A DNA stretch of 64,000 nt from Naegleria gruberi (lineage: Eukaryota). The stretch is taken from NCBI GenBank assembly GCA_000004985.1, contig GG738884.1. One strand, given 5' to 3'. Below, piece by piece: positions 5,891 to 64,000 of this stretch (the stretch's first letter is position 1; every line of letters starts with the position of its first letter). Position numbers and translations under genes: made by a program. The notes under the pieces were generated by a model, which was not told the origin of the DNA, did no database searches, and saw only the letters and a program-made list of their open reading frames with translations.

Positions 5891-6014
5891 TGTTTTTTTT
5901 ATTGCTGAGAATCCTATGGATTTCCTTCGTTTGAATGAAACTGTAAGATAAAAGAGCTATTGCTCTGTACAATGTGATGAACTATTTTTCACAAATATTA
6001 GTGAATTTAATATT

Positions 6015-6620
6015 TTACATGGTCAAACATTTATGTTCTCGAATATTTGTTGTTGTGGAGTTTAAATATTTTACATCTTTTTGAATAATTTCTTTAAATA
6101 GTAATTTTAAATCAGTTTGGTTTTCATGATAATATTCAATTAAATTAATATTAATTTCATTTTTAAATTTTTCAACCATTTCCTCCAAATTATTATTATT
6201 AATTAAATCAATCTTATTTAATGTAAATACAATTGGAATGTCATTTGATTCTTTAATATTTAATATTTGTTCGATCATAAATTTTAAACTGTTAATCGAC
6301 TTGAAATCAAATACATCACAAACAAGTATAAAACATTTACTGGATCGAATACATTGATCTATTTATATTAGATATATAATAATAAAATATATTGACTTAC
6401 ATCTCAATGCTGAATATTCCTCTGCCCCATCTATTTTCAATATTTAATATATTTCTATTCTAAATGTATTTTCATCAACTAGTATATATTTCGCATAATC
6501 ATCTACACATGATAGATCATAGCATAACATATTTCTAAAATTGAAACACAATTGATGTTTTACCTAATTTGTAATTTAATAATTTAAATTTGGTACAACA
6601 TTTATTGGCAATCATCTTGT
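6015..6620 (-). CDS. Ras-superfamily small GTPase-like gene with degenerate G1/G3 motifs, multi-exon, possibly a pseudogene.
   Basis: The terminal exon (to 6015) encodes KCFILVCDVFDFKSINSLKFMIEQILNIKESNDIPIVFTLNKIDL (G4 NKxD). Upstream exons encode YDLSCVDDYAKYILVDENTFRIEI and IDGAEEYSALR (DTAGQE replaced by DGAEE) with GTAAGT introns. The putative first exon lacks the GxxxxGK[ST] P-loop. Reading through requires at least two frame disruptions. Confidence 0.35.
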
Positions 6621-7927: not shown

Positions 7928-8346
7928 TTTGAAAAGAATCAAAAAAAAAGTGAGAACAACAACAGCTGGAAGAGGCTAAACCACATTTTGTTGCACTTTA
8001 CTCTCGAGAGAACAATTACCAACAACAATCACAACAAGACAATATATGAACCATCAATTTTCTCATCCTTCCTCCCTGAAGAATACAAATAATAATAACC
8101 TGATACGAGCACCCTTCCTTTCACCTCCATCCAAAATAACACAACCAAAAACACATATTGATACTCCCGTGGTCACCCAGAGAACAATGTTCAATAATAA
8201 TCATCAACAGCATCACTCCTCACTACCATCAGGAACACAGGATGATAGTGTATTAAATAACAGAGACCGTTTACGAAGACAACACCTGAATAGACATAAT
8301 ATGCCCTCCACACCAACACTTGGAAAATCCAATCACTTTCAAGAGA

Positions 8347-10164
8347 ATGCCAATCCAACAACAACAACCTGGACAACCTGGTACTTCATTCACAATAGAA
8401 TTATCTACAGCACCAAAGAAAGGTCCACCACAACACTTGTTAGAACGTTTAAGTAAAAAGACAAGTGTAGCAAAGAGTGTCAAGGATTCCGAAATGGGTG
8501 ATGGAAACAATACACAAATGCAACAACCAGCCACAACAACAGCAGCAACTACTACTGGTAGTGCTAATAACACTGCAATCACAGCCAATCAGAGAAGACA
8601 AACTATTTTGGAATTCCAAAAGAGAAAGAGTACAACAGCAACAACTCTTAAAAATTCCCTCAATAAGCCAACACAAACTAATCCTCCTAATTTAACATAC
8701 ACTACCTTTGATACAAATGGTCTGACATTGGACGATGATTTGGAAATTGGATTTGAGAAATCTGGGTCTCCTATTGTTTCATTGAATGGATTGAATAGAG
8801 CCAGTCAGCCTTCTCCAAATAATTTTGCTTTTGGAGCTCAACAAAATGTAAATAGTCAACCAAACATTCCTGCTCAACAAGGTTTCCAACAACCACAACA
8901 ATTTGGTGGGTTCAATCAACAACAAGAGAATAATCAACCAAACCCTCAATGGCAAATTGAACAACAACAATTAGAACAACAGCAACGAGTGGCAGAACAA
9001 CAAAAGCTTGAACAGCAACAATTGGAGCAACAGAGAATGACAGAACAGCAAAGAGTTGCTGCTGAGCAACTCCTTCAACAACAACAATTGGAACAACAGA
9101 GAATGGCTGAGCAACAACGTTTAAGGGATCAGCAACAACAGCAACAATTGGATCAACTCAATGAGCAACAACGTGCTGCAGCAGAGCAACAAATTCTTCA
9201 ACAAAAGCAAATGGAACAACAAAGAATGCTAGATCAGCAACGTATTGAACAAGAAAAGCTTCAACAACAATTTGCTGAGCAACAACGTAATGCAGAACAG
9301 CAAAGAATTGCTGCCGAGCAACAACATTTGCTTCAACAACAACAAATGTGGCAAGCTCAACAAGTTTCCCATCAACCTCAACCTCAATCTCAAATGCAAT
9401 ATATTCCAGTTTACCAAACTGTTCCATCTGAAGAAGTTCAAAGAATGATTCATGAAGTGCAACGTCAACAGGCTGAATTCGAAAGACAAAGACAAGCCCA
9501 GATGGAAATAATTCAAAGAGAAAGAGCTGAACTTGAACTGGGAAGGGAATTGTTGAGGAGACAACAACTTGAACTCCAAGCCAAATTGAATGAAGTTGAT
9601 CAAATCAAGATGGGATTACCTCCATCAACTGAAAGAAGAAACTCGATCGATGCTCGTAGAAATGAAGTAGAAGCCAACAGAAATATCAAAAGAACAGCTC
9701 AAAGACAAGAGATTATTAAATCAAAGAGAGAACTTAACTTGCTTAATGTTGACAAATTGTCGAGAACCTCAAGAGAAATCAAGAGAGAAGAAAGAGAAGA
9801 AGAAAAGAAGAGAACTAGATCCATGTTACCAGAAGGCATTTTCTCACCACCAAGAGCCAAACCAACACTCTCAAGGCCATCCATGTATGGTTCAAGAACC
9901 ACTCCATCCTCCGTTACTAAATCAGATATCAGCACTGGTAGAAAAACAATTGAGACACCAACTTCTCTATACAGCCCTGCATCCTCAATGAGGGGAAGTA
10001 TTAGATCGAGTGTTTCGACATCTAAGTCCAACTCTAGGGAAATGGCTTCTCCATCAAACCAATTGAGTAAGAGAAAGCAAATGGTTTTGGAAAAGACAAG
10101 AAGAAAAGCAGAAGAATTTTCTCGTAAATCAACATCCAATAATAATACTCCATGTCAACATTAA
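8347..10164 (+). CDS. Gln-rich coiled-coil protein of about 606 aa. It may carry an N-terminal extension from the overlapping ORF 8046..8456 in another frame.
   Basis: First real ATG in the long ORF is at 8347. There are about 9 imperfect QQLEQQRMAEQQR-type repeats (8940-9400), then charged coiled coil and an S/T/R-rich tail. Upstream ORF 8046..8456 (MNHQF...) overlaps by 110 nt in a different frame. Confidence 0.5.
   Translation: MPIQQQQPGQPGTSFTIELSTAPKKGPPQHLLERLSKKTSVAKSVKDSEMGDGNNTQMQQPATTTAATTTGSANNTAITANQRRQTILEFQKRKSTTATTLKNSLNKPTQTNPPNLTYTTFDTNGLTLDDDLEIGFEKSGSPIVSLNGLNRASQPSPNNFAFGAQQNVNSQPNIPAQQGFQQPQQFGGFNQQQENNQPNPQWQIEQQQLEQQQRVAEQQKLEQQQLEQQRMTEQQRVAAEQLLQQQQLEQQRMAEQQRLRDQQQQQQLDQLNEQQRAAAEQQILQQKQMEQQRMLDQQRIEQEKLQQQFAEQQRNAEQQRIAAEQQHLLQQQQMWQAQQVSHQPQPQSQMQYIPVYQTVPSEEVQRMIHEVQRQQAEFERQRQAQMEIIQRERAELELGRELLRRQQLELQAKLNEVDQIKMGLPPSTERRNSIDARRNEVEANRNIKRTAQRQEIIKSKRELNLLNVDKLSRTSREIKREEREEEKKRTRSMLPEGIFSPPRAKPTLSRPSMYGSRTTPSSVTKSDISTGRKTIETPTSLYSPASSMRGSIRSSVSTSKSNSREMASPSNQLSKRKQMVLEKTRRKAEEFSRKSTSNNNTPCQH
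8940..9400 (+). repeat. Imperfect tandem coding repeat (about 39-45 nt unit) encoding Q-L-E-Q-Q-R-M/V-A-E-Q-Q.
   Basis: Repeated caacaacaattggaacaacagagaatg(a/g)ctgagcaacaacg units are visible directly in the sequence. Confidence 0.5.
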
Positions 10165-27606: not shown

Positions 27607-27679
27607 GGGGATGTAGCTCACATGGTAGAGCGCTTCTTTAGCATGGAAGAGGTACGGGGATCGATACCCCGCATCTCCA
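27607..27679 (+). tRNA. tRNA-Ala (anticodon AGC).
   Basis: Cloverleaf: acceptor GGGGATG/CATCTCC with the G3:U70 alanine identity pair, D-arm GCTC-ACATGGTA-GAGC, anticodon stem CTTCT/GGAAG with loop TTAGCAT, T-arm CGGGG-ATCGATA-CCCCG, discriminator A. A downstream T-run (CTTTTTATTTT) fits a Pol III terminator. There is no intron and no encoded CCA. Confidence 0.85.
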
Positions 27680-46118: not shown

Positions 46119-47030
46119 ATGTCGCAACAACAAACAGGAACAAAGGGATCAACATCATTCCGTGCCTTTTCTCTCTTTAAAAACTTTGCTGAATACTTTA
46201 TTGATGTTCCAAAGGAATCTCACTTTTATGAGAGAGGTGTTTTAACACCAGAAGAATTTGAAAAGGCTGGTGATTTATTGGTTTCAAAATGTCCAACTTG
46301 GTCTTGGTCTGCAGGAGAACCATCAAAGAGAAAGGATTATCTTCCTGCCGACAAGCAATTCCTCATCACTCGTAACGTTCCTTGTTTGAAACGTTGCAGT
46401 GAATTGATCGAAATGGCCAAGGACGAAGAACCAGTTGAAGATGGCGAATGGATTGCTACTCATATTAATCACACAAAGGAAAAGGAAAAGGAAGAAATTG
46501 GAGATATTACTGGAGGAGTTGATGATCTTGTTATTCACAGCGCTGAGGATGATGAGGAAGATGATGGTGAAGCCATTGATATTGATAATTATTCTGATTC
46601 TGAACTTGAGGATACAATTAAAGACAAGGGAGCCCTTGAAGCCAATAACGGTGACAGCATTCTTCAAACCAGAACTTATGATTTTAGTATTACTTATGAT
46701 AAGTATTATCAAACTCCAAGAGTTTGGCTTTTTGGCTATGATGAACGTGGTGCTAAATTGGAATCTGAAAAAATTCTTGAAGACATTCATGCTGATTATG
46801 GTAATAAGACTGTCACTATTGAACAACATCCACATTTAAATACTCAATGGGCCAGTATTCACCCTTGCAGACATGCTGAAGTCATGAAGAAGATGGTTGA
46901 TCGTTTAGTTGGAGGTGGTTCAGGCGAAAAGCAATTCGTTAGAGTTGATCTTTATTTGTTCCTCTTCTTGAAGTTTATTTCATCTGTAATACCAACCATT
47001 GAATATGACTTTACCACTCAAGTCGATTAA
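46119..47030 (+). CDS. ATG3: Autophagy E2-like enzyme Atg3.
   Basis: FYERGVLTPEEFEKAGDLLVSKCPTWSWSAGEPSKRKDYLPADKQFLITRNVPCLKRC matches Atg3 ([29 protein letters not shown]...YLP..KQFL.TKNVPC.KRC). A long acidic insert follows, then the catalytic HPC motif (IHPCRHAEVMKK) and the C-terminal FLKFISSVIPTIEYDFT. Confidence 0.75.
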   Translation: MSQQQTGTKGSTSFRAFSLFKNFAEYFIDVPKESHFYERGVLTPEEFEKAGDLLVSKCPTWSWSAGEPSKRKDYLPADKQFLITRNVPCLKRCSELIEMAKDEEPVEDGEWIATHINHTKEKEKEEIGDITGGVDDLVIHSAEDDEEDDGEAIDIDNYSDSELEDTIKDKGALEANNGDSILQTRTYDFSITYDKYYQTPRVWLFGYDERGAKLESEKILEDIHADYGNKTVTIEQHPHLNTQWASIHPCRHAEVMKKMVDRLVGGGSGEKQFVRVDLYLFLFLKFISSVIPTIEYDFTTQVD

Positions 47031-47090: not shown

Positions 47091-50000
47091 TTACTCTACA
47101 ACATCTTGCCACATTTCCTCAATTTCATAAATGGCTTCAAGAATTTCTGAAAAGTCAGGTCTGATATTTTCATCAGTTGCCCAACATGTCTTCATCAATT
47201 CTGTGTACTTATCAACAAGTGGGATCAATAGATTGGAACTGGTCAATTCTACTCTATTCTTTTGCTTATTACAGAATAAATACCATTCACATTTTAGGGT
47301 ATCTTCGTCTTGCTCGAATTCGGACGAGTCGTTTTGAATTTGGAGTGCATTGTTTCTTACTGAGCTTATTTCCCATGGAATGACTGGTCTTCTGCCCTGA
47401 ATAACTTCACTACCAATAGAGAAGATACTCATCATATCAGAGCCTATAAATGTAGTATGACCTGATGTGTCAGAGCTTGTCAAATCAGAAATTTGTGAAC
47501 CACTATTAGATTCAGTACTAATTCCAATACTAGACCTTTCCTTCTTGGTGAGGGGAGATTTTGGAAGTTCTGTATATGGTTGTACCATGAAGAATAATTC
47601 ATACATGAGGATGGCAAAACTGAAAACATCACATTTGACTGTATATCTTCTAGATTGCTTGAGGATTTCTGGACTTGTGTATTGGATAGTACCATAACAA
47701 ACACCAGTCATTGTGAGTGAAGACAATGGCTTTGACACACCAAAGTCACAAACCTTACAATTGCCAGCTTCATCTATGAGAACATTTTGAGGTTTCTATT
47801 ACAAAAAATTAATTAAGAGTATTCAATTTGAATACTTACCAAATCTCTGTGAATGATAGGTGGTTTAGTGTTATGTAAATAAATCAAAGCTCTACAAATA
47901 TCCTTCAATATTTCAAGTTTTCTTCCAAATGTAATAATTTCATTTCTAGCCTTCCTCTTCTTAGGATAGATGATCTTGTCCAAACTTCCACCTTTTACAA
48001 ACTCAGTTACGATATACTTGTTATCCTCGTCCACACTGACACCAATAAGTAAGACAACATTAGGGTGTCTCAATCCTGTTAAAATATTAGCTTCATGTTC
48101 AAAGTTTTCATCATCATCACAACCAAATTGGTTAGATTTGATTCTCTTGACAGCAACTTCAGTACCTTTCCAAGAAGCTCTGAAAATAACACCTCCAGCA
48201 CCTTCTGAAACTCTCTCCTTGAATTCCAAATCTTCAATTGGAATCAAATGGGCAGATGTATTTGTAGAGTCCATTGAAGAATAGAAACTTGATTTAGTGT
48301 TGTGCTCGAGAAGTTTAGATAACATTTCATCTTCTGCCTTCTTCTTTCTCTTGAGAGTTTGTGATTGTCTTCTAAACATGAAAGCAAATATACCCAATGG
48401 TATAGCAACCACAAGAATTATCAAAATACCAGCTACAATTAGAATTGGAACAATAACACAAGCAGCATATGAAGTGTTTCCATTCGTGAATGTTGGTAAA
48501 CCCAGTGGACAAGAAGTACATTTGACAGCACCTTTCAAATCAGAGTAAGTAGAAAATGGACAAATTTCACATTGTAAATCTCCATTAAGGAAGAAACCCT
48601 CCTTACAGTATACGCAAATAGATAAATTCTTAGAACCAGCACTTTCTGTAGTCATACCTGTTGGACAAGAATAACAAACAGGAGAACCAGTAGAGTTTGA
48701 ATAAGTTCCAATTGGGCACAATTTACAATCTCCTTCTGATTCGGATCCACTATTTGGTTGGAATGTTCCAGCAACACAAGCTGTACATTCCTTTTGACCC
48801 ATAGTATTAGCATAAGTACCAGGAAGGCAAGGAACACAACTGGTAGAGTTGGATGAACCCTCATTTGGATTAAAGGTTCCAAGTGTGCATTTTGAGCAAA
48901 TAGAGGCACCCTCCTTTTCAGAGTATGATCCAGCTGAGCAAGGTTTACAATCTGATGCTTGATAACTGTTCATATTAGAGTTTGCTGTACCTGCTGCACA
49001 CTTGGTACAATGAGGAGCTCCAGGATTTGCGCTAAAAGTACCAGTCGAGCATGGCAAACATGACATTGAACTATTTTGACCAAATAGTGGTTGATAGGTA
49101 CCTTTTTCACAGAGTGTACATTGATATTGTTGCATTAGATCTGCGTATTGACCTGTAGGGCAAGGAAGACATTTCTTTAAACCAGTCACAGGTGCAAATG
49201 TACCAATTGGACAAGCTGTACAATTTAAAACTTGTCCAGTAGTATTTGAAAAAGATCCTTTTGGACATGAGTCGCACAATCTCTGTCCAATTGTTTTTCC
49301 AAAAGTACCAGGTTCACATGGAATACATGAAGAAGGATAAATAGAACCCATTACAGGATTGTGGGTTGAAATAGGACATGGAATACATGAAGAAGCTCCT
49401 ACATAAGGATTGTATTGTCCATAAGGACAAGGTGTACAGGTTTCATTTGAGAAGGCAGAAAGCTCATCACTTGCTGTACCTGCAGGACAATGATAACATT
49501 GTTCATCCTTAAACATAATTGTATAAATTGTTGGTAAACTTGGAAGGGTTCTATTGTAGAATGAAACAACATAGGCCTTATTTGATTCGCTGTATGCCGA
49601 ATAAATAGCTCCATAAACTGTATCTTTGGATTTTTCAATAATAGTTTCCTTATACCATCTTTCTCTATTTCTAACACAATACTTGGAAGCGAAAAATCTA
49701 GATCTGACTTCATTGGGATTACCAACATTACTACCACCTGGTCGAATAACTCCAGATACGTAGGTGAAACCACTTGAATCTACATCAAATGTTGTATTGT
49801 AAACGTTTTGGAAAGTAAGCATTGATTGCAAGAAACCATTTGAATCAGTTTTAGCAAGGAAAAAATTTCTATCAAAAGAGCTGGTTACATTTTGCCCTTG
49901 GAATGATACATAACTACCAAACTCGCCAGAAAAGAGAATATTTCTATTTGGATCAAACTTGAGAAGACTGCTGAACTCTGAAGTGAAGAATTGGTCAGAA

Positions 50001-53000
50001 GTGATCATATTGTCATCCTTACTACTGTTAGTAGTAATTGTTTGCATCCATAATATCTTTCTGTTACCGGTTGTTTGGTCTAGTGGACCAAACTTGAGTA
50101 AATAGTAAGAGAGTACTTCTGAATTGTGATTGATTATTTGCAAATCCTCAAACCTGACTGCACTCTTGAAAACACCAGAAATTACAACATTTCCTACAGA
50201 ATCTGGTAATACAGAGAACCCTTTAGACATACCCTCACTAGTGGCTATCCACAAACAAACCATATTAAAAGGCTCAATTTCAAATACTATAGTGTTAACA
50301 AGAGAAGAAGAAGTTGTAGTACAGCTAGGATCAATTTCAACGCTTCCTCTATATCCTCCAGTGATTAAAATTGATAAATCTTCAGTTATTCTAATAGATT
50401 CAGGGATTACGTTGATAAACTCCTTTCTTACTTGAATTCTTCCTTCATTGATTTTTAACATTACACCTGTGAATTGTGTAGCTCCATAATTTTGTTTGGC
50501 TTTCCATCCAACAACCCAAGTGTTATCAAACCTGTCAGTAGCAACACTGGTTACAGTAATTCCATCTGTAGAATTGGTTTGATCTGAGAGAGTAGCAAAG
50601 TAGTTGAAGCTTTCAGCATCCAAAACCGATGAAAACCTGACAGAAATTCCATTCAAAGGACCTCTTGGACTTGTAGAAATACCAAAGCCTGTATATGAAA
50701 TACTACCATGTCTACCAAAAGAAATGTAGAGTGAAGGAACTGTTCCATATAAAAAGATTGGACTCACAATTTTGTCTGCATCTGTTTGATTTACCAAATA
50801 CGAGCCGACTCCACAACTAGTAAATCCTTGCACAATTTCAGAGCCACAATTTTCACCAGTATAGTTAGTATAACACTTGCAAACATCTTTAGCAACACAA
50901 GCTCCGTGAGAAGCACATACAGACATATTGGTTGCGTCAACCCCAAAGCAATTAGCAATTTCGCAATTCTTTCCTGTGTAATTCTCATTACAAATACAAT
51001 AGTCAGGAAAAGCACATCGTCCATTGCCTGAACAGGTCTGCACATCATTTTGTGGAATGTCAAAGCATACAGGATACTGACATGACTCACCAGCAAATGT
51101 TCCCAAGCTACAAGAACAAGAATTTGGTCTAACACATTTTCCTCTTCCTGTACATGCTCTTGTATCATCTTGAGAGTAAAATCCACATAAAGGAATAGTA
51201 CAAAGTATATCACTACACTTATTACAACCCTCTGTAACAGTTGAAACTAGTGTATTAATGAAGCCTACAGGGCTAACAACAGTACTTGGATCTCCAATTA
51301 CTTGCACATTACCACTGAAAGAAGCAGACACATAGAACTGTCTTGGAGTCCTTGCATCGGTCGATAACATTAATGGTTGAGTGGCTATCAAGGATCCCTT
51401 AATGAAAGAGTGAATGTAGGTTTGTTTGAGTTGTACATTTGTACTATCGCCAGTGTTAACAAATTTTTGGGCAAAGAGAGTGATTGAGCTTTGAACACCA
51501 AAGGTTATAAAACTATCCCAATCAATATTAGAGTAGACATTACCATTCTTTCCGATAACTACAAGCTCATTGTAATTGTTTGCTCGAATTTTAACACCAA
51601 AATATGGATTATCATATTGAACTAGATGAGCTATAAGACTTCCATCGTCTATTGATACTTGGGAAATGATACTACTAAAATTCGAAAGTTGAACATTAAT
51701 TAGCATAACATCACCCAAAAATGTTATATCTTCCACAGATTTTGCTCCATCAATTTCAATAATTTGTGACCAAATTTCTTGATCGGTAGTCTTGAAAGCA
51801 TCGTAGCAAACAATATAAACTTGGTGAACTGTTCCAACATCTGTCAACATGGTTTCCATGGTACCTGCAATGAAAACTCTGTCCTTCTTAGGAGATAAGG
51901 TAATCAAATGAGCTGAAGAAGAACCATAAAGATAGGATGGTAAAGGATCTACTTTAGTGGCATAAATTACCTTTCCAGTTGTGTTGGAGAGGGCACCATA
52001 GAATACAGAGCTTTGTTTTCTAGATTCTAAAACAACTCCAACATCCACAAAAGTTAATTTGGCATTAAATACTCCTGTAAAATATAGTGTTCCATCTTGG
52101 CCGTAAGTAACATCCTTAACTATGTTCATAGCCACACTACCCATAATTGTATTTGGCATAATAATGGCAGGTGGAGGGAAAATGGGTTGAGGGAGCTCAG
52201 CTTCCTTATTAATTGCTGGTTGATCCAAAATATTATCCAGATCAAATTGGAATAACATTAGTGTTGATTTAGATTCGTATTGGGTTTTTGCAATTTCCAA
52301 ATATTGAGGCAATTCACCTCCCAATGCTACTCTCCTTTTCCCATTATGATCAAGCTTAGCCATCGTGTATAAATAGTATTTGGTGTTTCTTGTAACTATT
52401 CCAACTTTGAAAAGTCTAAACATGTTACTATTTTCATAAATTACCCAATACCCTTGAGTAACACCAGCTGAAATCTCTGCTACGACCTCATCAGCCACTG
52501 CCACATCAGACCCTGAAAAGTGCCCGATTGTATAAATTCGATTCTCATCACTCACCAATTTTCTTTGATCTACCTGCAAAGTAGACAGGAAATCAAATCT
52601 GGCTCCTTTCTCTTCAGGCGATGCACCTCGAATAAAACTCATTCTAGTTGATGTAATAGTTCTGTTTCTAATAATCATTGGATGAAGAAAATCTTTACTG
52701 CAGTCAACCACATGGTTTGGATTTTCGCTATCTGGATCCAGAGATACATACGAATTATAGAATAATCTCTTGTCAATGATACCATTCTCGGTTGATGCAC
52801 AACTCGCAAGACTAAATAAATAATTATGTAATATAAGTATTATACATAGAACAATAATGATTTTTCCAATTCCTCGATTATTATTATTATTATGATTTAC
52901 AACATTTAACCCTTCCAATTTTGATAATCCAATAATATTTGTTGTTCTTTCTCGATTATGATAATGATTGAACCAGGTTGATGAAAATTTATTTTTCTTC

Positions 53001-53134
53001 TTATCCTGTTGTTCTTGTTCTTGTTGTATCTGATGATGGTGCGATATTGATGATGAACAAGGAGTTTCATCATCAGAAGAGAAAAGTAACAGCGGTGATA
53101 GTAGTGTTTCGCCTCCAAGTAGAAGCAGAGACAT
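47091..53134 (-). CDS. Giant TKL-family receptor Ser/Thr kinase of about 2000 aa. It contains an N-terminal globular region, 4 EGF/tenascin-type repeats, a second beta-rich region, at least 12 GCC2/GCC3-type Cys repeats, a TM helix, and a kinase split by one 44-nt intron. Exons: 47840..53134 and 47091..47795.
   Basis: EGF-like: CTGRGKCVRPNSCSCSLGTFAGESC... Repeats of CxPCPxGxYxxxxGxxxC (for example CTPCPYGQYNPYVGASSCIPCP). TM: VIVPILIVAGILIILVVAIPLGIFAFMF. Kinase: GAGGVIFRASWKGTEVAVKRI, HRDL|KPQNVLI (intron GTAAGT...GTAATAG), CDFGVSK, GTIQYTSPE. Confidence 0.7.
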
Positions 53135-53534: not shown

Positions 53535-55487
53535 ATGGTCTTCTCTGCCAATACTTCTGATCAAAAACAACCCATCATCAATAATACTAATATGAATAAT
53601 AACTTTCAATCCTTCTTTTATCAAGCTCATCTTTCTGCTGGGGGGAGCAATACTAACAATCATCATCAACAACCACCACTACTAGCCAATCAATCTAAAA
53701 GTCCAGCGAATAATTACTTGCCAGGCACTGCCAATGGACAAATTAATAATAATCTACATGATTATCTGTATCAACTTCAACAACAGAAGCAATCACCTCA
53801 ACAACCATTGTTGCCCTTGTCGAATTCATCTTCCGAAGAGGAATTATCAGACCCAACTAATGATTTCATCAATACTTACCATCATCCCTCCACCGAATCA
53901 CTTTATGGCAGCTCATTGTATGAAGGTGATGAACAGGAGGAATTTATGGATGAGAGTAAAATATTGCAAATGAATGGAATTTCCATCATCAATAATAGTA
54001 ATAACGAAATAGATCATCAACAATCTAAGCACGTATTGAATGGAGCACAATCATCACCATCCTCCTCCTCAGCCTCTGTAAATATTCTCAATCAAATTAA
54101 TCACCAACATCATCACAATACTACCACCACAACTGCTGATAAACAAGTTGGTTCTTCTTCCATCAATTATAATGGTGGATTGTATCAACAACAACAGCCA
54201 CTATTGATTACTGCATCACAATTGCAACAATTCTTCCCTGTGAAACAAAAGATTAAGAAGGCAATCTTGTATATTGATCTGGATAATTTCCCAATTTCTA
54301 GACCTTCTGAATATTTGGAAATGTTAGCCAAGATTAAATCCAAATACTCTATTGATGTGACAGCAAAGAAGATATTTGGAGATTTGAATCAATTTGAAAA
54401 ACTTCCAGTTGACTTTCAATTCTCACATCAATTAATCATTTGTCCAAAGGTTTCATCAAGAAAGAATACGACAGATATTGCATTGACCATTGAGGTCATT
54501 AAGGATTTGGAGAGAAAGAAACCATTCGATGTGTTTATTATTGCCTCGTCTGATTCGGATTTTGTTCCGGTCGTTAAGGCCATCAGAGATGAGGGCAAGG
54601 AATGTTGGATTTTGCCATCTCACAATTATCCTCACCAAACTTTGATGAGCATTTGTAATGGCATTCTTGATTTCAACTCACAACAAAATGTGAGTAATCC
54701 TCTTCAAGAGTTGAACATTCCATCCAAGCCATCTCAAGTGGCCAACAAGACGAGTCCAAACACATCTCCAAGAAAGAAGGAAGTACTTCCTGTTCCAAAG
54801 GTTCATGTCAAGACGAATCATATTCCTCCTTCTCAAAACAAGTTATCTATTGTTGAGGTTAAATCAATGATTACAAAGATTATTAGAAAATTAGAGTTTA
54901 GTGGTGTGAAAATTTTCAACCTGTCATGTATTCATGAACAATTGAGAGACAAATCCATTATTTATCACCACTATGGATATCCAACATTCAGAGCTCTATT
55001 CGAAGAATGGAGTCAAGAGAATCCAAAATACAAATTCGAAAGAAATGAAAAGGATGGTCAATTATCATTTGCTCAAGAGGTACACCCAAATATCTTACAT
55101 AGACCACCACAAACAGTCCCTCAAACAGCCTCCACTAACCTTACCTATTCCAATGTAAAAATACTCCCAAAACCAACTAGCAGCACAAGCCTCTCTTCAA
55201 GTAATGAAAGTCCTGAACCATCTTTTAAACCAAAGGGAAGTAGGAAAGCTTTGAAGAATGCCATTACCCAAATTCTCAAAAATCTCCACCAAGCCAATCC
55301 AAAGGGAAGTTTTAACATGTCCTTTGTAAATGAGAGAATGAGAGAAAGAAGTCTCAAATACAAGGAACATGGCTATGATTCCATGAAAACTCTTTTCACT
55401 GAATGGAAACAAGAACATCCAACAGCATTTCTTGGTGTTCGTGAAAAGAGTGGCGAATTATACTTTTTGCCAACCTTCTCTCTTTAA
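53535..55487 (+). CDS. NYN-domain ribonuclease with two C-terminal LOTUS/OST-HTH domains (MARF1/limkain-b1-like).
   Basis: NYN: ILYIDLDNFPISR...KIFGD...TDIALTIEVIKDLERKKPFDVFIIASSDSDFVPVVKAIRDEGKECWIL. LOTUS 1: VKSMITKIIRKLEFSGVKIFNLSCIHEQLRDKSIIYHHYGYPTFRALFEEW. LOTUS 2: ALKNAITQILKNLHQANPKGSFNMSFVNERMRERSLKYKEHGYDSMKTLFTEW. The N-terminal 230 aa are Q/N/S-rich. Confidence 0.6.
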   Translation: MVFSANTSDQKQPIINNTNMNNNFQSFFYQAHLSAGGSNTNNHHQQPPLLANQSKSPANNYLPGTANGQINNNLHDYLYQLQQQKQSPQQPLLPLSNSSSEEELSDPTNDFINTYHHPSTESLYGSSLYEGDEQEEFMDESKILQMNGISIINNSNNEIDHQQSKHVLNGAQSSPSSSSASVNILNQINHQHHHNTTTTTADKQVGSSSINYNGGLYQQQQPLLITASQLQQFFPVKQKIKKAILYIDLDNFPISRPSEYLEMLAKIKSKYSIDVTAKKIFGDLNQFEKLPVDFQFSHQLIICPKVSSRKNTTDIALTIEVIKDLERKKPFDVFIIASSDSDFVPVVKAIRDEGKECWILPSHNYPHQTLMSICNGILDFNSQQNVSNPLQELNIPSKPSQVANKTSPNTSPRKKEVLPVPKVHVKTNHIPPSQNKLSIVEVKSMITKIIRKLEFSGVKIFNLSCIHEQLRDKSIIYHHYGYPTFRALFEEWSQENPKYKFERNEKDGQLSFAQEVHPNILHRPPQTVPQTASTNLTYSNVKILPKPTSSTSLSSSNESPEPSFKPKGSRKALKNAITQILKNLHQANPKGSFNMSFVNERMRERSLKYKEHGYDSMKTLFTEWKQEHPTAFLGVREKSGELYFLPTFSL

Positions 55488-55641: not shown

Positions 55642-56910
55642 ATGAGCAATATCCTACAAGGTTTCGAACCATGCAAACTCACCACAGCTGGCCGACCTCT
55701 CTATTCAAGTCCCAAAGAGTTGGAACAAATGATCGTGATTGGAATTGCCATCTACGACAACTCTGCAAAGGAATTGAAGGATTTTAATCACGTCTACTTG
55801 ACCACTCACAGAATTTACATCATGTTTCATAGTGACAATACATCATCATCAATACAATCGGATCATGGAATTTCCTGTCCACTCTCATCAATAGAAAAGG
55901 TTGAGAAGGAGAGTGGAGGCTTCTTCCGATCACCGAAAATTAAATTCACCATCAAATCATCAAACTTTTCGATATCATTTAGAAAGGGAAAGAGGGATGA
56001 GTTTTATGATCATCTTCAAGATCAATTAAAGAAGAAAAAGTGGACGGAAGATGTAAATAATGCAATGCAAATATCAACATCAATGGATTCGATATCATCT
56101 CTAACAACAGACTCCAGCAATAATAATAATAAGAATGTAAAGAAGGATTTCACTACAAGTACAGCTGGTGTTGCTGGTATTATGAAGAGAATTGATCAGG
56201 AAAATTTGGAGGAACGAAAGGAAATGGATGATGCCTTCTCGGATTTGAAAAAGTTGATGGAAAAAGCTGAGGATATGGTTAATATGGCAGAAAATTATAA
56301 GAACAAAATTGTACAAAGGATGAAAAACGACACTGAAGCCACATCAGAGGAAACTGAAGAAGAAAAACAAATTTTGGACTTTTTATTGAATTTGGGTTTA
56401 GCTTCTCCTGTTACCAAACAATCTACTGGAGCACTTTATCATCAACAATTAGCCAGGCAACTTATTGACTTTCTAGACAAGATTGTACAGGAAAGATATG
56501 GTGGTGTTATTACATTGAGTGATGCATATTGTTTGTATAATAGAGCGAGAGGTACAGATCTGATCTCACCAGAAGATATGGAAAAAGCTTGCTCTCTTTT
56601 TGAAAAATTGAAACTTCCAATGAAACTCAAAGTATTCGATAGTGGCGTAATTGTTATTCAATCCTCCCAATATTCTGATAGAATGATGGCTGAAAAGATT
56701 GCAGAATTCATTAGAGATGGGCATGAGTGTGATGTAATGACATACAAGTTTATTACAGCTGTGCGGTTAGCTCAATTACTGAATGTCAGCATTGTTCTTG
56801 CAAAAGAATTATTACTTACTGCTGAACATAACAGAACACTTTGTAGAGATGAAAATGAGGAAGGTATCAGATTTTATTTAGTATCTGATGTGTTTGACAA
56901 ATTTATTTAA
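55642..56910 (+). CDS. VPS36: ESCRT-II subunit Vps36/EAP45-like, with an N-terminal GLUE/PH-like region and C-terminal winged-helix EAP30-type domains.
   Basis: RPLYSSPKELEQMIVIGIAIYDNSAKELKDFNHVYLTTHRIYIMF (GLUE-like). GGVITLSDAYCLYNRARGTDLISPEDMEKACSLFEKLKLPMKLKVFDSGVIVIQS matches the conserved Vps36 WH motif. Confidence 0.6.
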   Translation: MSNILQGFEPCKLTTAGRPLYSSPKELEQMIVIGIAIYDNSAKELKDFNHVYLTTHRIYIMFHSDNTSSSIQSDHGISCPLSSIEKVEKESGGFFRSPKIKFTIKSSNFSISFRKGKRDEFYDHLQDQLKKKKWTEDVNNAMQISTSMDSISSLTTDSSNNNNKNVKKDFTTSTAGVAGIMKRIDQENLEERKEMDDAFSDLKKLMEKAEDMVNMAENYKNKIVQRMKNDTEATSEETEEEKQILDFLLNLGLASPVTKQSTGALYHQQLARQLIDFLDKIVQERYGGVITLSDAYCLYNRARGTDLISPEDMEKACSLFEKLKLPMKLKVFDSGVIVIQSSQYSDRMMAEKIAEFIRDGHECDVMTYKFITAVRLAQLLNVSIVLAKELLLTAEHNRTLCRDENEEGIRFYLVSDVFDKFI

Positions 56911-56957: not shown

Positions 56958-59859
56958 TTAATTCAATATTAGAATAATATTAGAATGAAAATATCGAATC
57001 GAAAACTTACAGTGATCGTGAATTCCTCTTGTGGCTAAAATACTATTAATGATTGTTAGGAGCATCTTGAAACTCTTTCTAAATTCAGTTTCCATCTCTT
57101 CAAGCTCTGGGATAAAAATATCTTCTCTTTGAGTTTCTTTAAAATTGGCCAATTTGGTTCTCAAAGTTATACACATTTGCACAACTTTGAAAATGTGATT
57201 CTTTACGAATAGAGCTTTCTTTAACAGGAATCTGTCCTTAATCTTATTGAGATAGTCCAAGTGGAAGCTGCGAAGATCATCCATATTTTTTGCTGATAAA
57301 ATATTTTCACACAATTCATTCCACAGAGTATGTAATATTCTATTCATCATGTAGTACTGTACAGTTCCAATAAAATGTTTCAATTGGTTAAGGAGAGAAT
57401 AAAACTTGAGATAGGCATTACTTTTGTGTGTAAATGCATCAGTCTTGAGACTCATCTTGTCCAATACTAGTGTTTAAAGTTGTATTGTCAATTTAAAATA
57501 TTAAAAACGAACCTTGTTTAGCTTGTTTTAGTTTGAGATTGAAAACTAAAACCTCATTATAGCTCTGTATGTGTTGAGCTGAAATAATCAGATTTAAAGG
57601 CCACTCTAATTCATAATTAAAAGTGACTGCATCAAAAAAGTTATTTTCCTCATGCTTGATACTTCCATCATCAAAGTGAACCGAAATTATTTCATCCAAT
57701 TTCAGAGAAGTGAAAATATCAGTAGTGTAGACAGAGGTTGAGTTTTCGGTAGCAAAAGAATACCTCCTTGGAAATTCCATTCCTAAACGAAGTGCATCTT
57801 TGAGAATAACCTGAAGATCAAATGTTGTAATTCCTCTAAAATCAAATTGGAAAAATCTATCAGATAAATTAAATAATTTGGTGGCAAAATAGTCCATAAT
57901 GTCACCAGCCTCCATCAAGTAGAATGCTCTTATTGCTGTCAGATGGTCCAGTAACTTGCATCTATTGACCAATAAATCACAAAGATAGGGAGATACTCTA
58001 TGATATTGCTCCTCTATGTGGCTTGATAGTCCAACGTTAAATATTATTTCCAATGGTAGAGTTTGTAATTTTTGACTATTCTCTGATGAAAATTCAAGTA
58101 CATCCATGAGACTCTTCTTCTTGAAAATTGAGGTTAGCTTGTCTTGATTTGTTATTTTGTGCTCCTTAGAAAAGTCAAAGAACAAGAGTTCTTGTTGATT
58201 GGTGCTATTGTCAGCTGGAAGTGCATTACTGTACAAGTCTTCCTTTTCTAAAAGTGATATCATTCGTTTTTTCTTTGGTGGTGATCTCAGAGAGTGTAAA
58301 GATCCAATGGGAGCAAGTGTGGTTTGTCTGATGTTGTTTGAAGAAGAGCCTGCAGATTGATTTTCTCTCTTCTTTGAGGATGATGGCGAGGACCTAAAGG
58401 AATTGAGAGGTTTCAGTGGAGAAATGATTATTGACTCGTCATCATCAAAGGGTGAGTGATGTTCATCATTCTCTAAACCCATCGAAGAAGAAAGTAGATT
58501 AAAGAGTGAGGGTTTCTCCTTTTCTAGTAGATAATCACCAATAGAACTGTTATTGGCAGCAATTTCATACTTTTGCTCAATATCCCGCACAATAATGATG
58601 GATTTACCTGTTGCACTAATCTTGTCCTTAATTTTTGAGAGCAGGGAACAGACCTTAGATTCAGTAAATCCCTCACTCCAGAAGAGAGGTGTTCCAATAT
58701 CCACCAACTCATTCCTCTTGAGAAGAAATTCATTGTGTTGGTCCTGCAAGGTCCCTTCGAATATCCAGCTGTCTGTAATGGAAAGGTATGGCTTTAGAAT
58801 AGCCATCAATATTTGCAATGAATAATCATACTCATCATTGTTGCTCTCCATGGAAATATATTGTCTCGTGAGAACTTTTTCATAAAAGTGAGAAATTAAA
58901 TCTGACATTAAATTACTCTGTGAATCCTCTCTATCTAAGATTTCCTCAATTTCTTCATCCAGTTTTCTGAGTGTATGAATTTTTTGTTCAAAAACAAAAA
59001 GATTTGTCCTAAGGGAGAGGAGAGAAAGATTGTGTGTATCTCCAAATCTCTTTCCCATTTGATTACTCTTCTCCATTTCCGATAAATCGTCTCTGATTTT
59101 CTCTATTATTTGTAATATTGATGAGTAGCAAGATTGAATAATTGTGCTTTTTACAAGGCGTATCGATCTTGTTGCAGTCGAATGCATTTTCCTCAGCTTG
59201 TTACCTATCTTAATAAAATAATTTAAGGAATTATGTAGAGCTGTCCTAGAGAGGAAAGAAACAGAAAGCTCCCTATCAGAAAGCTCAAAATTATCATTCA
59301 CAATTTTAAATATAGTTCCCTGAAATCCTCTCAACATGTTGAATATTTCGCGTATCAGATCATTTTGTCTAATAACTTTTGTACAAGGTGTAATTACCCT
59401 AATATTTCCAATAGGAGGAGTTTGTGTAATTTTAAAGAGAGTATAATGCTCAAATAAATGTCCATGAGGAAAGTGAGTAAATGGTAAATGGCAAGTGATG
59501 AGTTTGTTTGGATCAAAATTGATAGTATAGAATAAATCTTCCGATTTTTCATTGGTTGTATTGAAATCATCATTCATAAAATCATCGTCGTCATCAAACA
59601 TTCCATGATCATCATTGTGTAATATTTGATGACGATCTTCCATTCTATTATTACTACTAAAGATATCTGTAATATTACACATCGTATCCATATGAAACAC
59701 TACATTATCATCAAGAATATCATTATTATTGGTGGTTTTGGTTTTTCTTGCTTGTTTCGAATCCAATTCCTCATCATCGGACCAATCACTTAAATCATCA
59801 TCATCCGAGCCATACTCTGCAAAATTTCGTTTATATTCCTCCAAATCTAATAAATTCAT
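56958..59859 (-). CDS. Gamma-tubulin complex component (GCP/Spc97-Spc98 family). Two exons: 57513..59859 and 56958..57466.
   Basis: LLDHLTAIRAFYLMEAGDIMDYFATKLFN and the C-terminal FHLDYLNKIKDRFLLKKALFVKNHIFKVVQMCITLRTKL fit GCP grip motifs. ORFs 57493..59916 and 56958..57464 are joined by a 46-nt GTTCGT...CACTAG intron. The real ATG is at 59859. Confidence 0.5.
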
Positions 59860-60227
59860 ATGAATTACTGCTTCCGATTCCAAGTAGAGTGCACACCCAA
59901 CAGTTACGTTGTTCAATTATTTTTTTTGTTGAATTATTTAATAATTTTGGCGGGAAGAGAAAGTAATCTTTTATACACAATATATTACCAATCATTACAA
60001 ACTGCAAGTATTAATTATTAAGCATACACCATTTGAATTGATTTAACAACTTCGTATGACACTTCCTTATATAGTAACCCATAAAAACTAATTAGCTCGT
60101 ACGCACAAATTGACCGCAGGATATCCAAAACAACTCATATACCTCCTGTATAAAAACCACACAACTATCCCCAATTCAAGAGTTCAATAACAAAAAAACA
60201 ATTCAATCTTCAAACTAAATCATAAAC

Positions 60228-61928: not shown

Positions 61929-64000
61929 TTATTCAGAAACGTTTATTACAAAAGTGTCACTAATGTCTGCTTCTTCGACATACTTGCTGTCAAGATATTC
62001 ACCATTGGCGTACAATGTACCCATATTGTCGTAATTCTTAGCAAAGATATTACCATCATTGCCAGTTGGAAGAATGAGTTTGTCTCTGTGGAGAGCATTG
62101 TTGAAAGTGAGAATTTGGCGATAGACTGGTCCTTCGTTGGTTTGATAATTTTCGTCCACATTATTCAAAAGAACTGTTTCAGTACCTCCCTCAGTTTTGA
62201 GAATAATTTCTGAAAGACAGCCAATAATTGGCGTATCCTTGCCTGCAATGTGATAGATTGGAGTTGCATGAATAGTTCCCCATGTTGGGATTTCACCATA
62301 TTGATTATAGAAAGTATCGACCATCAAGACAAACTTGGCAATGGCATAATCAGTACAGGTGGAATATCCTTGATTGATACATGCCTGATCATTGTTTCTC
62401 AGCATGGCATCCTTGTAATAGTACCATAAGGCAAGTCTATAGTTAGCAGCTTCGGCTCCTTCCATTTCCTTAGAAGCAAGTGTACCGAAATATCTCAAAA
62501 ATCCTTCAAATAAAGAAGCTTCCTTTGAAGTCTTCTTCATATAACCATCCCAATTAATCAAACTGGTCAACAAGTCAGAGTATTTAGAACCCTTCTTGGC
62601 CATTCCACTTGTCATGTTAACAAACATGAATTTGTAATCTCTATAAACCACGCTGAAAGTATCCAATTGAATATTAATCATATCTTGCATGGTCAATTTA
62701 CTTCCAGTCTCTGCATTTTGCTTCATTAATACTGCAAAAAGTTCTTGAATTCTTTGCTGTCTGTAATCGAAAAAGTAATCAGCACTGACTGTGTATGGAT
62801 ATCCTGGAGGAACAACACGATTATTAGCAGATGAAACATATCCTCTCTTTGGATTGTAAACTTCTGGTGCCTTGTCCACAGGTACATATCCATCATAATC
62901 CCATGTCATTGTATCTCCTCTAACAGCATATCGTCCAGTATGGCCCTCCCTACGCATTGGAATTCTTCCAGAAAGCTTGTAACCAATATTACCATTTACA
63001 TCCATGAAGGCATAGTTGAATACAATAGACTTAATTCCATTCACATAGGTACGGAACTCATTCCAATTCTTACTCAAAATCAATGCGTAGTAATTATTTA
63101 CGCTAGTGTCATTTTCAACTTGAGCAATCCATCTGAGAGCTGGAAGTTCTGTCTTGCTCTCGGATAACACTGGACCAAAGATTGACTCTCTGACCTTGAT
63201 GGTGACTGGATCAGCTCCAGAAATTTTGATTGTTTCACTATAAATAGTGAATGGTTTGGAGACTCCATCGACGAGATAATTATTCTCATTTGATGGATCT
63301 GGTGTCAAAATGTAGAGATCCTGAACATCAGTATATCCCAATGTTACACCCCAACCAATATATTCATTTCTTCCAATACCAATACCAGGAACTCCACTAA
63401 AAGCAGCTCCAGAGAAATTCCTAGGAGCTGAAGAGTCACTAGAAGTTCTATAATTCATTTGAACAAGATAAAATTGATCAGGAGCTTGGAATTCCAAGTG
63501 AGGATCATTGGCCAAATATCCTGTAGGACTATCAGTGAATGCCTTATTGACAGCCCAATTATTAGAGCCAATGGCCTTCTTGGTATTTCTTACCATTTCC
63601 TTGACAGTTTTAGAAATGAAGGAATATCTTCCACTGGAACTTTTACCCAATTTTCTACTTCCAGATTTTGGAATATAGGCACCTGTATTATTTCTGTTTT
63701 GCTTCCACTCCATAGCGAGTTCTTCTTGATGGGTCAAGTTGAGTCCTAAATCCTCACGAGTCACAATGGTGGCTGCATCAAACGGAACTGGTGGATCAAG
63801 GACCTCCATTCTGCTCAATGTAACTCCATACTTTGTCATTGCATTGTATCTTCTTTCTTCATCCAAATAATTCACAGACATGATAAACTCGATATACTTT
63901 ACAACACAGAGAGAATCAAAAATGGACCAAGGTTCAATATCATATCCCAATAGAATGGCTTCTGCAGGAGCTGCATTTCCACTTTGTAAATAAGCATTAA
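61929..64000 (-). CDS. Penicillin amidase / acyl-homoserine-lactone acylase family Ntn-hydrolase, partial. The 5' end lies beyond the window edge. No introns are seen in 2 kb.
   Basis: The frame is open to position 64000, and the track start MGYD is a TTG artefact. The beta-subunit N-terminal nucleophile region is GSNNWAVNKAFTDSPTGYLANDPHLEFQAPDQFYLVQMNY (SNxWA...ANDPHL). The length and the LDTFSVVYRDY region fit PF01804. Confidence 0.65.
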   Translation of the reverse strand, partial: NAYLQSGNAAPAEAILLGYDIEPWSIFDSLCVVKYIEFIMSVNYLDEERRYNAMTKYGVTLSRMEVLDPPVPFDAATIVTREDLGLNLTHQEELAMEWKQNRNNTGAYIPKSGSRKLGKSSSGRYSFISKTVKEMVRNTKKAIGSNNWAVNKAFTDSPTGYLANDPHLEFQAPDQFYLVQMNYRTSSDSSAPRNFSGAAFSGVPGIGIGRNEYIGWGVTLGYTDVQDLYILTPDPSNENNYLVDGVSKPFTIYSETIKISGADPVTIKVRESIFGPVLSESKTELPALRWIAQVENDTSVNNYYALILSKNWNEFRTYVNGIKSIVFNYAFMDVNGNIGYKLSGRIPMRREGHTGRYAVRGDTMTWDYDGYVPVDKAPEVYNPKRGYVSSANNRVVPPGYPYTVSADYFFDYRQQRIQELFAVLMKQNAETGSKLTMQDMINIQLDTFSVVYRDYKFMFVNMTSGMAKKGSKYSDLLTSLINWDGYMKKTSKEASLFEGFLRYFGTLASKEMEGAEAANYRLALWYYYKDAMLRNNDQACINQGYSTCTDYAIAKFVLMVDTFYNQYGEIPTWGTIHATPIYHIAGKDTPIIGCLSEIILKTEGGTETVLLNNVDENYQTNEGPVYRQILTFNNALHRDKLILPTGNDGNIFAKNYDNMGTLYANGEYLDSKYVEEADISDTFVINVSE

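Follow-up and report, generated by a model that had tools for sequence, protein, structure and literature searches.

A putative surface receptor kinase of Naegleria gruberi combining an SBBP-related propeller, EGF repeats, a Cys-rich stalk and a TKL-like kinase domain

Introduction

Work on single-pass receptor kinases is extensive for animals and plants and scantier for Entamoeba. Among the animal families, MET and RON combine a Sema propeller with a PSI domain, ROS1/Sevenless carries YWTD propellers and EGF repeats, and Eph receptors possess the Ephrin_rec_like Cys-rich domain. In Entamoeba, the type I surface protein PATMK carries a signal peptide, 25 CXXC repeats, a transmembrane segment and a kinase domain; it is required for erythrophagocytosis (PMC2211552). 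For the Heterolobosea we found almost no literature on receptor kinases, although this group includes the lethal pathogen Naegleria fowleri, and our searches returned nothing specific on Naegleria receptor kinases or on SBBP or Ephrin_rec_like domains in Naegleria. Here we describe a gene for a putative receptor kinase (minus strand, 53134..47091; 6,044 nucleotides (nt), two exons, product of 1,999 amino acids (aa)) in a stretch of 64,000 nt from Naegleria gruberi (assembly GCA_000004985.1, contig GG738884.1), referred to below as the window. Its predicted ectodomain comprises two large beta-rich regions (regions 1 and 2, the latter a candidate propeller), EGF repeats and a Cys-rich stalk.

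The protein resembles the Entamoeba transmembrane kinases (TMKs; e.g. PATMK/TMK96) in its long CXXC-repeat ectodomain, its single transmembrane segment and its cytosolic kinase with affinities to both Ser/Thr and Tyr kinases, in an amoeboid protist and probably serving phagocytosis or the sensing of the environment (PMC2211552). It differs from them in lineage (Heterolobosea versus Amoebozoa) and in number, being apparently single-copy where Entamoeba has a large family. PATMK has been described without a propeller, EGF repeats or a second large beta region, and its kinase lacks a glycine-rich motif, whereas the Naegleria kinase keeps all catalytic motifs. No Entamoeba sequences appeared among the homologues matched with the full-length protein or with region 2, and no direct comparison was made; the receptor kinase is not classed as a member of the TMK family, the likeness being one of architecture only.

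With MET/RON, ROS1/Sevenless and the Eph receptors, compared here from general knowledge, the protein shares the succession of a distal propeller or globular module, EGF or Cys-rich spacers, a transmembrane helix and a cytosolic kinase, and with the Eph receptors also the Ephrin_rec_like module itself. It departs from these metazoan receptor kinases in its catalytic loop (HRDLKPQN versus HRDLAARN) and in its propeller, which is of SBBP rather than Sema or YWTD type. A Pfam scan of the 1,999-aa product for Ephrin_lbd, fn3 and SAM gave no matches. Judged by these predicted features, i.e. the lack of ephrin-binding, FN3 and SAM domains together with a Ser/Thr-type kinase, the protein is neither an Eph receptor nor a conventional receptor tyrosine kinase (RTK). 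Among bacteria, PknD of Mycobacterium tuberculosis also joins a Ser/Thr kinase, a single transmembrane helix and an extracellular propeller sensor; in PknD, however, the order is reversed, with an N-terminal kinase and a C-terminal propeller of the six-bladed NHL type, and neither EGF repeats nor a Cys-ladder stalk occur. A weak sequence echo of PknD (1rwi, E 3.8e-4) came from a mixed profile in which bacterial sequences predominated.

No account of an SBBP-type propeller joined to EGF repeats, an Ephrin_rec_like stalk and a TKL-like kinase was found in the literature searched. With its bacterial-type propeller, animal-like EGF and Eph-like modules and a kinase that appears active from its residues, the protein would be a further case of independent receptor-kinase assembly that draws on a common stock of extracellular parts. 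It falls into a familiar class and overturns no current view, and its orthologues are already public as 'hypothetical protein'.

Results and Discussion

The locus is one intact gene, and it probably encodes a TKL-like Ser/Thr receptor kinase of the cell surface. Two minus-strand open reading frames (ORFs) cover it, one of 1,773 codons at 53134..47813 and a second at 47738..47091 that continues the kinase. Exon 1 (47840..53134, minus strand; aa 1-1765), defined by the single ORF, the junction read and the spliced translation, runs from the ATG through the HRDL of the catalytic loop. At the junction, CAC AGA GAT TTG is followed by the intron, GTAAGTATTC...TTGTAATAG, and then by AAA CCT CAA AAT. 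The intron (47796..47839, minus strand; 44 nt, phase 0, GTAAGT...AATAG, read directly in the sequence between L1765 and K1766) has a GC content of 18% and holds the sole GTAAGT of the 6,044-nt gene. Exon 2 (47091..47795, minus strand), defined by its ORF and the spliced translation, encodes aa 1766-1999 and ends with the TAA stop at 47093..47091. Spliced together, the exons of 5,295 and 705 nt yield 1,999 aa with zero internal stops; read unspliced, the kinase terminates nine codons past HRDL. An earlier reading of the DNA made without database searches (the sequence-only reading) had proposed one gene of about 2000 aa with a single 44-nt intron within HRDL|KPQN, and its coordinates, size and intron place all agree with ours.

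The exact spliced product has no identical entry in a collection of 15 billion proteins. Three flanking ORFs, by comparison, are residue-identical to the N. gruberi proteins XP_002674391, XP_002674392 and XP_002674467, all on one 363-kb scaffold. Since all three flanking proteins are present and the exact product is missing, the public N. gruberi annotation probably models the receptor kinase gene differently or lacks it.

Orthologues were found in the heteroloboseans Naegleria lovaniensis, N. fowleri and Willaertia magna, in agreement with the lineage restriction that had been proposed. The top homologue, at 60% identity across 93% of the query, is N. lovaniensis C9374_003637, whose 90% cluster includes N. 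fowleri FDP41_011554 (2,055 aa); an exhaustive HMMER search with region 2 added W. magna KAL9655086.1 and one environmental fragment. In the databases these proteins are labelled 'hypothetical' or 'protein kinase domain-containing'. The N. lovaniensis locus reads GCP, Vps36/EAP30, receptor kinase, ATG3, and the window keeps this order and the relative orientations, with ATG3 (46119-47030) adjoining the receptor kinase and with Vps36 (55642-56910) and GCP (57493-59916) as further synteny partners. In N. lovaniensis a 59-nt intron lies at the identical HRDL|KPQN codon boundary, and this catalytic-loop intron is the only one common to both genes. That EGF repeats, a GCC2/GCC3 array and a kinase are combined in one receptor gene, as the sequence-only reading held, is borne out by the uninterrupted ORF, the collinear orthologues and the shared intron position.

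Identity between N. gruberi and N. lovaniensis is graded by region: 90% in the kinase core, 69% in the propeller (region 2), 67% in the EGF repeats, 62% in the transmembrane and juxtamembrane part, 52% in the stalk, 49% in region 1 and 35-43% in two inserts of the kinase C-lobe. Such a gradient is as expected for a working receptor. No paralogues were found elsewhere in the 64-kb window, and none at E<1e-30 among the matches of the region 2 search (1.84 billion representatives); the receptor kinase appears to be single-copy per genome.

As to gene structure in the relatives, N. lovaniensis has two further introns, a propeller intron and a CxxC-stalk intron (fetched-locus positions ~9100 and 10022-10098), where N. 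gruberi is continuous. Public orthologue models look imperfect. The N. lovaniensis model begins just past a signal-like segment that the upstream open frame encodes (fetched-locus 5446-6150), and a second, near-identical N. lovaniensis record on a 66-kb contig has internal deletions; the Willaertia model lacks the catalytic core of the kinase as well as two EGF repeats.

The kinase domain (aa 1636-1986; 47133..48229, minus strand, spanning the intron) was delimited by Pfam and by ranking against PDB. Pfam assigns it to PK_Tyr_Ser-Thr / Pkinase at E about 1e-48 (Pkinase 1.5e-47). The key residues K1663, E1681, H1762-R-D1764, N1769, D1782-F-G and S1806-P-E could all be read, along with the motifs HRDLKPQN, DFG and GTIQYTSPE. 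With its catalytic residues all present, the domain is apparently an active-type member of the eukaryotic protein kinase superfamily. The patterns of conventional Tyr kinases and RTKs (HRDL(A/R)A(A/R)N; P-(I/V)-(K/R)-W) are absent, the loop reading HRDLKPQN and subdomain VIII GTIQYTSPE; with these two motifs, the Ser/Thr type that had been proposed is supported.

For the proposed TKL membership the outcome is mixed. The PDB ranking is headed by Arabidopsis CTR1 (1.8e-42), TNNI3K, MLK4, TAK1, RIPK3 and ZAK, so that the top matches are indeed TKL members, but the Tyr kinases CSK, ABL and BTK are interleaved or stand just below, and the assignment is one of similarity ranking only. The best non-orthologous database match is a protein with Roc/COR, LRR and kinase Pfam domains, a set like that of LRRK/ROCO proteins. 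Common to the Naegleria kinase and the TKL kinases (CTR1, TNNI3K, MLK1/4, TAK1, ZAK and RIPK3; 1.8e-42 to about 1e-27) are the HRDLK-x-x-N loop and G-T-x-x-[WY]-x-[AS]-P-E; it differs from these cytosolic proteins in its receptor context and in its two C-lobe inserts (~85 residues in total).

The whole 1,999-aa product and its separate regions were scanned with Pfam. Two beta-rich globular regions had been claimed for the ectodomain, and two strand-rich stretches without a Pfam match above threshold are indeed found, at aa ~114-636 and ~766-1211. Between them lie a Cys-rich linker and three EGF repeats (aa 637-765; 50840..51226, minus strand), recognised by Pfam and by Cys positions and 67% identical to N. 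lovaniensis. The EGF repeats expected from the earlier reading are six-Cys units at aa 650-685, 690-724 and 729-763, with EGF_Teneurin (3e-9, 37.2 bits, cutoff 24.3) and EGF_2 (2e-7, 31.7 bits, cutoff 22.1) above the gathering score. The ectodomain carries 20 N-glycosylation sequons.

Region 2 (aa 766-1211; 49502..50839, minus strand) can be identified, from sequence relatives and a modelled fold, as a seven-bladed beta-propeller related to bacterial SBBP repeats, with a confident core at aa ~859-1165. A phmmer search with region 2 against the 1.84 billion representatives returned 278 matches at E<1e-3, those beyond the heterolobosean orthologues being multi-repeat proteins. Pfam was run on the eight top matches: two were heterolobosean, and each of the other six carries SBBP (PF06739), some together with BACON, FlgD_ig or PQQ domains. 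One SBBP-bearing match comes from a metagenome-assembled genome of Spirochaetes and has relatives in Bacteroidota, Planctomycetota, Deltaproteobacteria and Chloroflexi. A profile made from the four heterolobosean sequences alone matched the SBBP unit profile at probabilities of 96% (E 2e-9), 76% and 64%, with two weaker units in addition, and our own unit hidden Markov model (HMM) scored 29.3, 11.7 and 3.7 bits at aa 1061-1106, 978-1015 and 922-950. The repeats are degenerate (recognisable blades: 3-5 of about 7). The SBBP assignment is favoured both by significant sequence similarity to genuine members and by a seven-bladed fold, and by sequence the nearest relatives of region 2 outside Heterolobosea are bacterial SBBP-repeat proteins. 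With these and with CylK's C-terminal domain it shares the signature D-x-x-G-N-x-Y-V-T-G-x-F ... F-x-x-K-x-D and seven blades; unlike them, it is embedded in a eukaryotic receptor kinase, and it lacks the Ca-binding partner domain of CylK. A sequence match to CylK from a mixed profile was discounted as deriving from the bacterial rows of the alignment.

Region 1 (aa 114-636; 51227..52795, minus strand) is all-beta and 49% identical to N. lovaniensis; on its own it matched nothing in Pfam. Its AlphaFold2 (AF2) model has a mean predicted local distance difference test (pLDDT) score of 46.6, and only an all-beta core of ~170 residues (piece residues ~230-400) reaches 65-88. Foldseek searches with this model returned propellers only, at low TM-scores of 0.2-0.28. 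Compared with the SBBP unit by hhalign, region 1 gave probabilities of 16% and 8% (not significant), and against our own unit HMM it scored 1.6 bits, where the shuffle maximum was 3.4. Region 1 may possibly be a very divergent propeller. A simple tandem duplication of one propeller was considered and dropped, since neither BLASTP nor hhalign showed any similarity between regions 1 and 2. Word-indexed searches with region 1 (aa 112-641), alone or as an alignment of three orthologues, gave no matches and missed even the orthologues contained in the query alignment, which the full-length query had recovered; their negatives are uninformative.

The stalk (aa 1212-1559; 48458..49501, minus strand) comprises, by Pfam and unit count, 19 CxxC half-units or about 9-10 Ephrin_rec_like domains. 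The half-units (aa 1213-1559) are spaced alternately by 17 and 20 residues; Pfam reports nine stretches of Ephrin_rec_like (PF07699, formerly GCC2_GCC3; E 6e-48, 160.8 bits, cutoff 23.1) and also TNFR_ELAPOR1_6th. This accords with the at least 12 GCC2/GCC3-type, TNFR-like Cys repeats announced by the sequence-only reading. Orthologues retain every stalk Cys. Among solved structures, the Chlamydomonas mastigoneme protein Mst1 (8tx1, E 6.9e-31) comes closest, ahead of ELAPOR1 and DR6. In Mst1 the module forms a disulfide-ladder rod with ~11 A between disulfides and has been likened to the Eph cysteine-rich domain (PMC10602792). If that geometry holds here, the 19 disulfide pairs would give a stalk of ~20 nm. 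Mst1 is otherwise different, being a filament subunit with Ig domains, a polyproline helix and no kinase; the stalk module alone is common to both.

The stalk is followed by the transmembrane helix (aa 1560-1587, V1560-F1587; 48374..48457, minus strand), which was located by hydrophobicity as the strongest hydrophobic peak of the protein, is conserved in orthologues and precedes a basic stop-transfer segment, RRQSQTLKRKKK. The second hydrophobicity peak falls at aa 88-113. Here a hydrophobic segment (KIIIVLCIILILHNYLFSLASCAS, aa 91-113; 52796..52864, minus strand; Kyte-Doolittle peak) could be an internal signal peptide or a signal anchor. It is preceded by an N-terminal extension of low complexity (aa 1-90; 52865..53134, minus strand), which is not conserved in sequence and is probably cytosolic. 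There is no ATG codon between M1 and the hydrophobic segment, the first 90 codons resemble the rest of the gene in GC by codon position (0.46/0.32/0.19), and the probability of 90 codons being stop-free by chance is ~0.001; by these measures the extension looks coding.

Equivalent hydrophobic segments, each immediately preceded by Met, are found in Willaertia (MNLMIINIIIFILYFINFIYASG), N. fowleri (MRTMMMIIMILFIYC) and the N. lovaniensis genome (MRVVMIILIMILFIYC). In the Willaertia model the segment lies 24 residues in, the N. fowleri annotation carries an N-terminal extension of 130 aa, and the N. lovaniensis frame stays open upstream of the annotated start, encoding MRVVMIILIMILFIYCTDFMSA there. 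The extensions of N. gruberi and N. fowleri showed no significant similarity by BLASTP; a conserved extension was discarded as an idea, a common F-S-S-D-D...C patch being anecdotal. For the type I topology claimed earlier, a single strong transmembrane helix with basic residues after it was observed, but the topology is unproven, the only signal-like segment sitting behind ~90 apparently coding codons. The protein would either pass the membrane twice (aa ~1-90 cytosolic, anchor 91-113, transmembrane helix 1560-1587, kinase cytosolic) or become type I after internal cleavage; under both topologies, we infer, the ectodomain lies outside and the kinase in the cytosol.

From this architecture a working scheme can be proposed. 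The CxxC array would act as a stiff disulfide ladder, a stalk keeping the propeller or propellers off the membrane, and these membrane-distal modules would bind an extracellular ligand, particle or surface. Binding would cluster receptors and bring kinase domains together; these would trans-phosphorylate one another in the Ser/Thr-rich activation segment (SKPLSSLTMTG), and perhaps also in the Ser-rich C-lobe insert, which would switch the kinase on, and the signal would then pass to cytosolic targets. By analogy with PATMK the likeliest setting would be an amoeba recognising prey, particles or surfaces, which is favoured over a hormone-like soluble ligand because among amoeboid protists PATMK offers the closest functional precedent. 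The protein may accordingly be viewed, by the same analogy, as a surface sensor or phagocytic receptor signalling by clustering and autophosphorylation. Conserved among amoebae both free-living and pathogenic, with an N. fowleri orthologue (FDP41_011554), and combining these modules with an apparently active kinase, the gene is a concrete candidate for amoeba sensing of prey, surfaces or hosts.

Several points weigh against an active, TKL-like surface receptor with an SBBP-type propeller. In the kinase, the glycine-rich loop reads SEGAGG (S-x-G-x-G-G), i.e. the first Gly is a Ser, identically so in the orthologues, and the PDB ranking, although consistent with the TKL group, is a similarity ranking and not a kinome phylogeny. 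In region 2, SBBP (PF06739) is unlisted in the Pfam scan of the whole protein and reaches only E 1.2 with region 2 alone (9.6 bits versus a cutoff of 20.5), and the orthologue-only profile of region 2 found no relative in PDB by sequence. The fold match to CylK depends in part on the sequence evidence, because the alignment given to AF2 for the propeller contained bacterial SBBP segments. Region 1 is without a confident fold, the start codon and the signal cleavage are predictions only, and literature searches by locus tags returned nothing on the protein or its orthologues.

The strongest alternative is that the protein serves mainly in adhesion or phagocytosis, as a receptor for particles, prey bacteria or the substratum, its kinase tuning engulfment or the cytoskeleton locally, as in PATMK, and is not a sensor of soluble ligands. 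We regard this as possible, if not favoured: it overlaps with our preferred explanation and differs in kind of ligand and in output only, and it is opposed by the single-copy state of the gene, which shows no expansion like that of the Entamoeba TMKs (no paralogues at E<1e-30).

A further-reaching proposal, and a rather improbable one in our estimate, concerns the origin of the propeller. It could be a bacterial SBBP module that was captured laterally by the ancestor of Naegleria and Willaertia, fused to the EGF/Cys-ladder stalk and TKL kinase, and put to recognising bacterial prey or biofilm; region 1 could be a second, diverged copy. In favour of it, the detectable relatives of region 2 outside the heterolobosean clade are bacterial only. 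The repeats are too diverged, however, and eukaryotic sampling is too thin, for a direction or source of transfer to be argued. If true, lateral capture would have produced a chimeric, Heterolobosea-specific receptor for bacterial prey or biofilm surfaces.

That the protein signals or adheres without catalysis, its kinase domain being a pseudokinase or scaffold, is very unlikely. The replaced first Gly of the glycine-rich loop and the two large C-lobe inserts would fit such a reading, and PATMK itself is a suspected pseudokinase (PMC2211552). Yet the VAVK Lys, the helix-C Glu, HRD, the catalytic Asn and DFG are all in place, and at 90% identity with N. lovaniensis the kinase core is the best-conserved part of the protein. 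We retain an apparently active Ser/Thr-type kinase.

The C-lobe inserts themselves call for correction of one earlier claim. A Ser-rich insert of 100 residues had been placed in the activation segment, but the segment from D1782 to E1808 has 27 residues, a normal length, and the extra sequence forms two inserts in the C-lobe. The first (aa ~1846-1882; 47445..47555, minus strand), recognised by a break in the CTR1 alignment, is Ser/Thr-rich and lies between helices F and G; the second (aa ~1907-1953; 47232..47372, minus strand) lies between helices G and H and holds a conserved EWYL-x-CNK motif. The CTR1 alignment halts after helix F (...QPYTELP) and restarts at ...TELMKTCW. The block DMMSIFSIGSEVIQGRRPVIPWE between the CTR1-aligned parts corresponds to helix G and splits the unaligned stretch, hence two inserts rather than one. 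That these Ser-rich and acidic stretches are unrecognised introns in an otherwise compact kinase is extremely unlikely. It is true that no part of the protein is less conserved than the inserts (35-43% identity) and that their length differs among species; insert 1 is in frame in the orthologues, of variable length and 35% identical. But both are in frame, stop-free and without a GTAAGT donor, their length differences in annotated orthologues amount to whole codons, and the helix G block and the EWYL-x-CNK of insert 2 are conserved in four species, whereas the one real intron has a GC content of 18% and canonical ends. Being in frame, lacking a splice-donor consensus and differing between species by whole codons, the inserts are taken as coding.

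Receptor propellers are mostly binding modules, which counts against the propeller being an extracellular enzyme module as in CylK, a reading to which we give scarcely any probability. CylK, the closest solved fold of region 2, is catalytic (PMC8916777), but identity to it is only 15-17%, and the CylK active site lies at the interface with its N-terminal Ca-binding domain (PMC8916777), a domain that is absent from the receptor kinase. A binding propeller remains the preferred reading. Finally, a gene model that wrongly fuses two genes, one for a secreted or membrane protein and one for a separate kinase, has a practically negligible probability, nothing in its favour having been found, and it is nearly excluded that the N-terminal 1,000 aa and the kinase stem from different transcripts, because a single ORF of 1,765 codons spans M1, the transmembrane helix and the kinase up to subdomain VIb, the order is collinear in all four species (the same in the three others), and the gene contains no gap of promoter size.

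Neighbouring genes in the window

Between the receptor kinase and Vps36 lies a gene for a 650-aa NYN-domain protein (53535-55487, plus strand; Pfam NYN 6e-16; XP_002674392). In the syntenic N. lovaniensis interval (fetched-locus 5445-6001, ~550 bp) no gene is called and the space is too short for it; the lack of the NYN gene there indicates a lineage-specific insertion or loss. At 61929-63950 (minus strand) a 673-aa ORF matches Pfam Penicil_amidase at 2.7e-119; the penicillin amidase family is mainly bacterial, and the ORF is possibly a laterally acquired gene. The segment 8001-10000 is a compositional outlier (AT skew +0.34; GC 0.39 versus about 0.33-0.36 elsewhere) and coincides with a 614-aa ORF at 8320-10164 (plus strand) that has no Pfam match. 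The sole tRNA of the 64-kb window is a tRNA-Ala(AGC) at 27607-27679 (plus strand).

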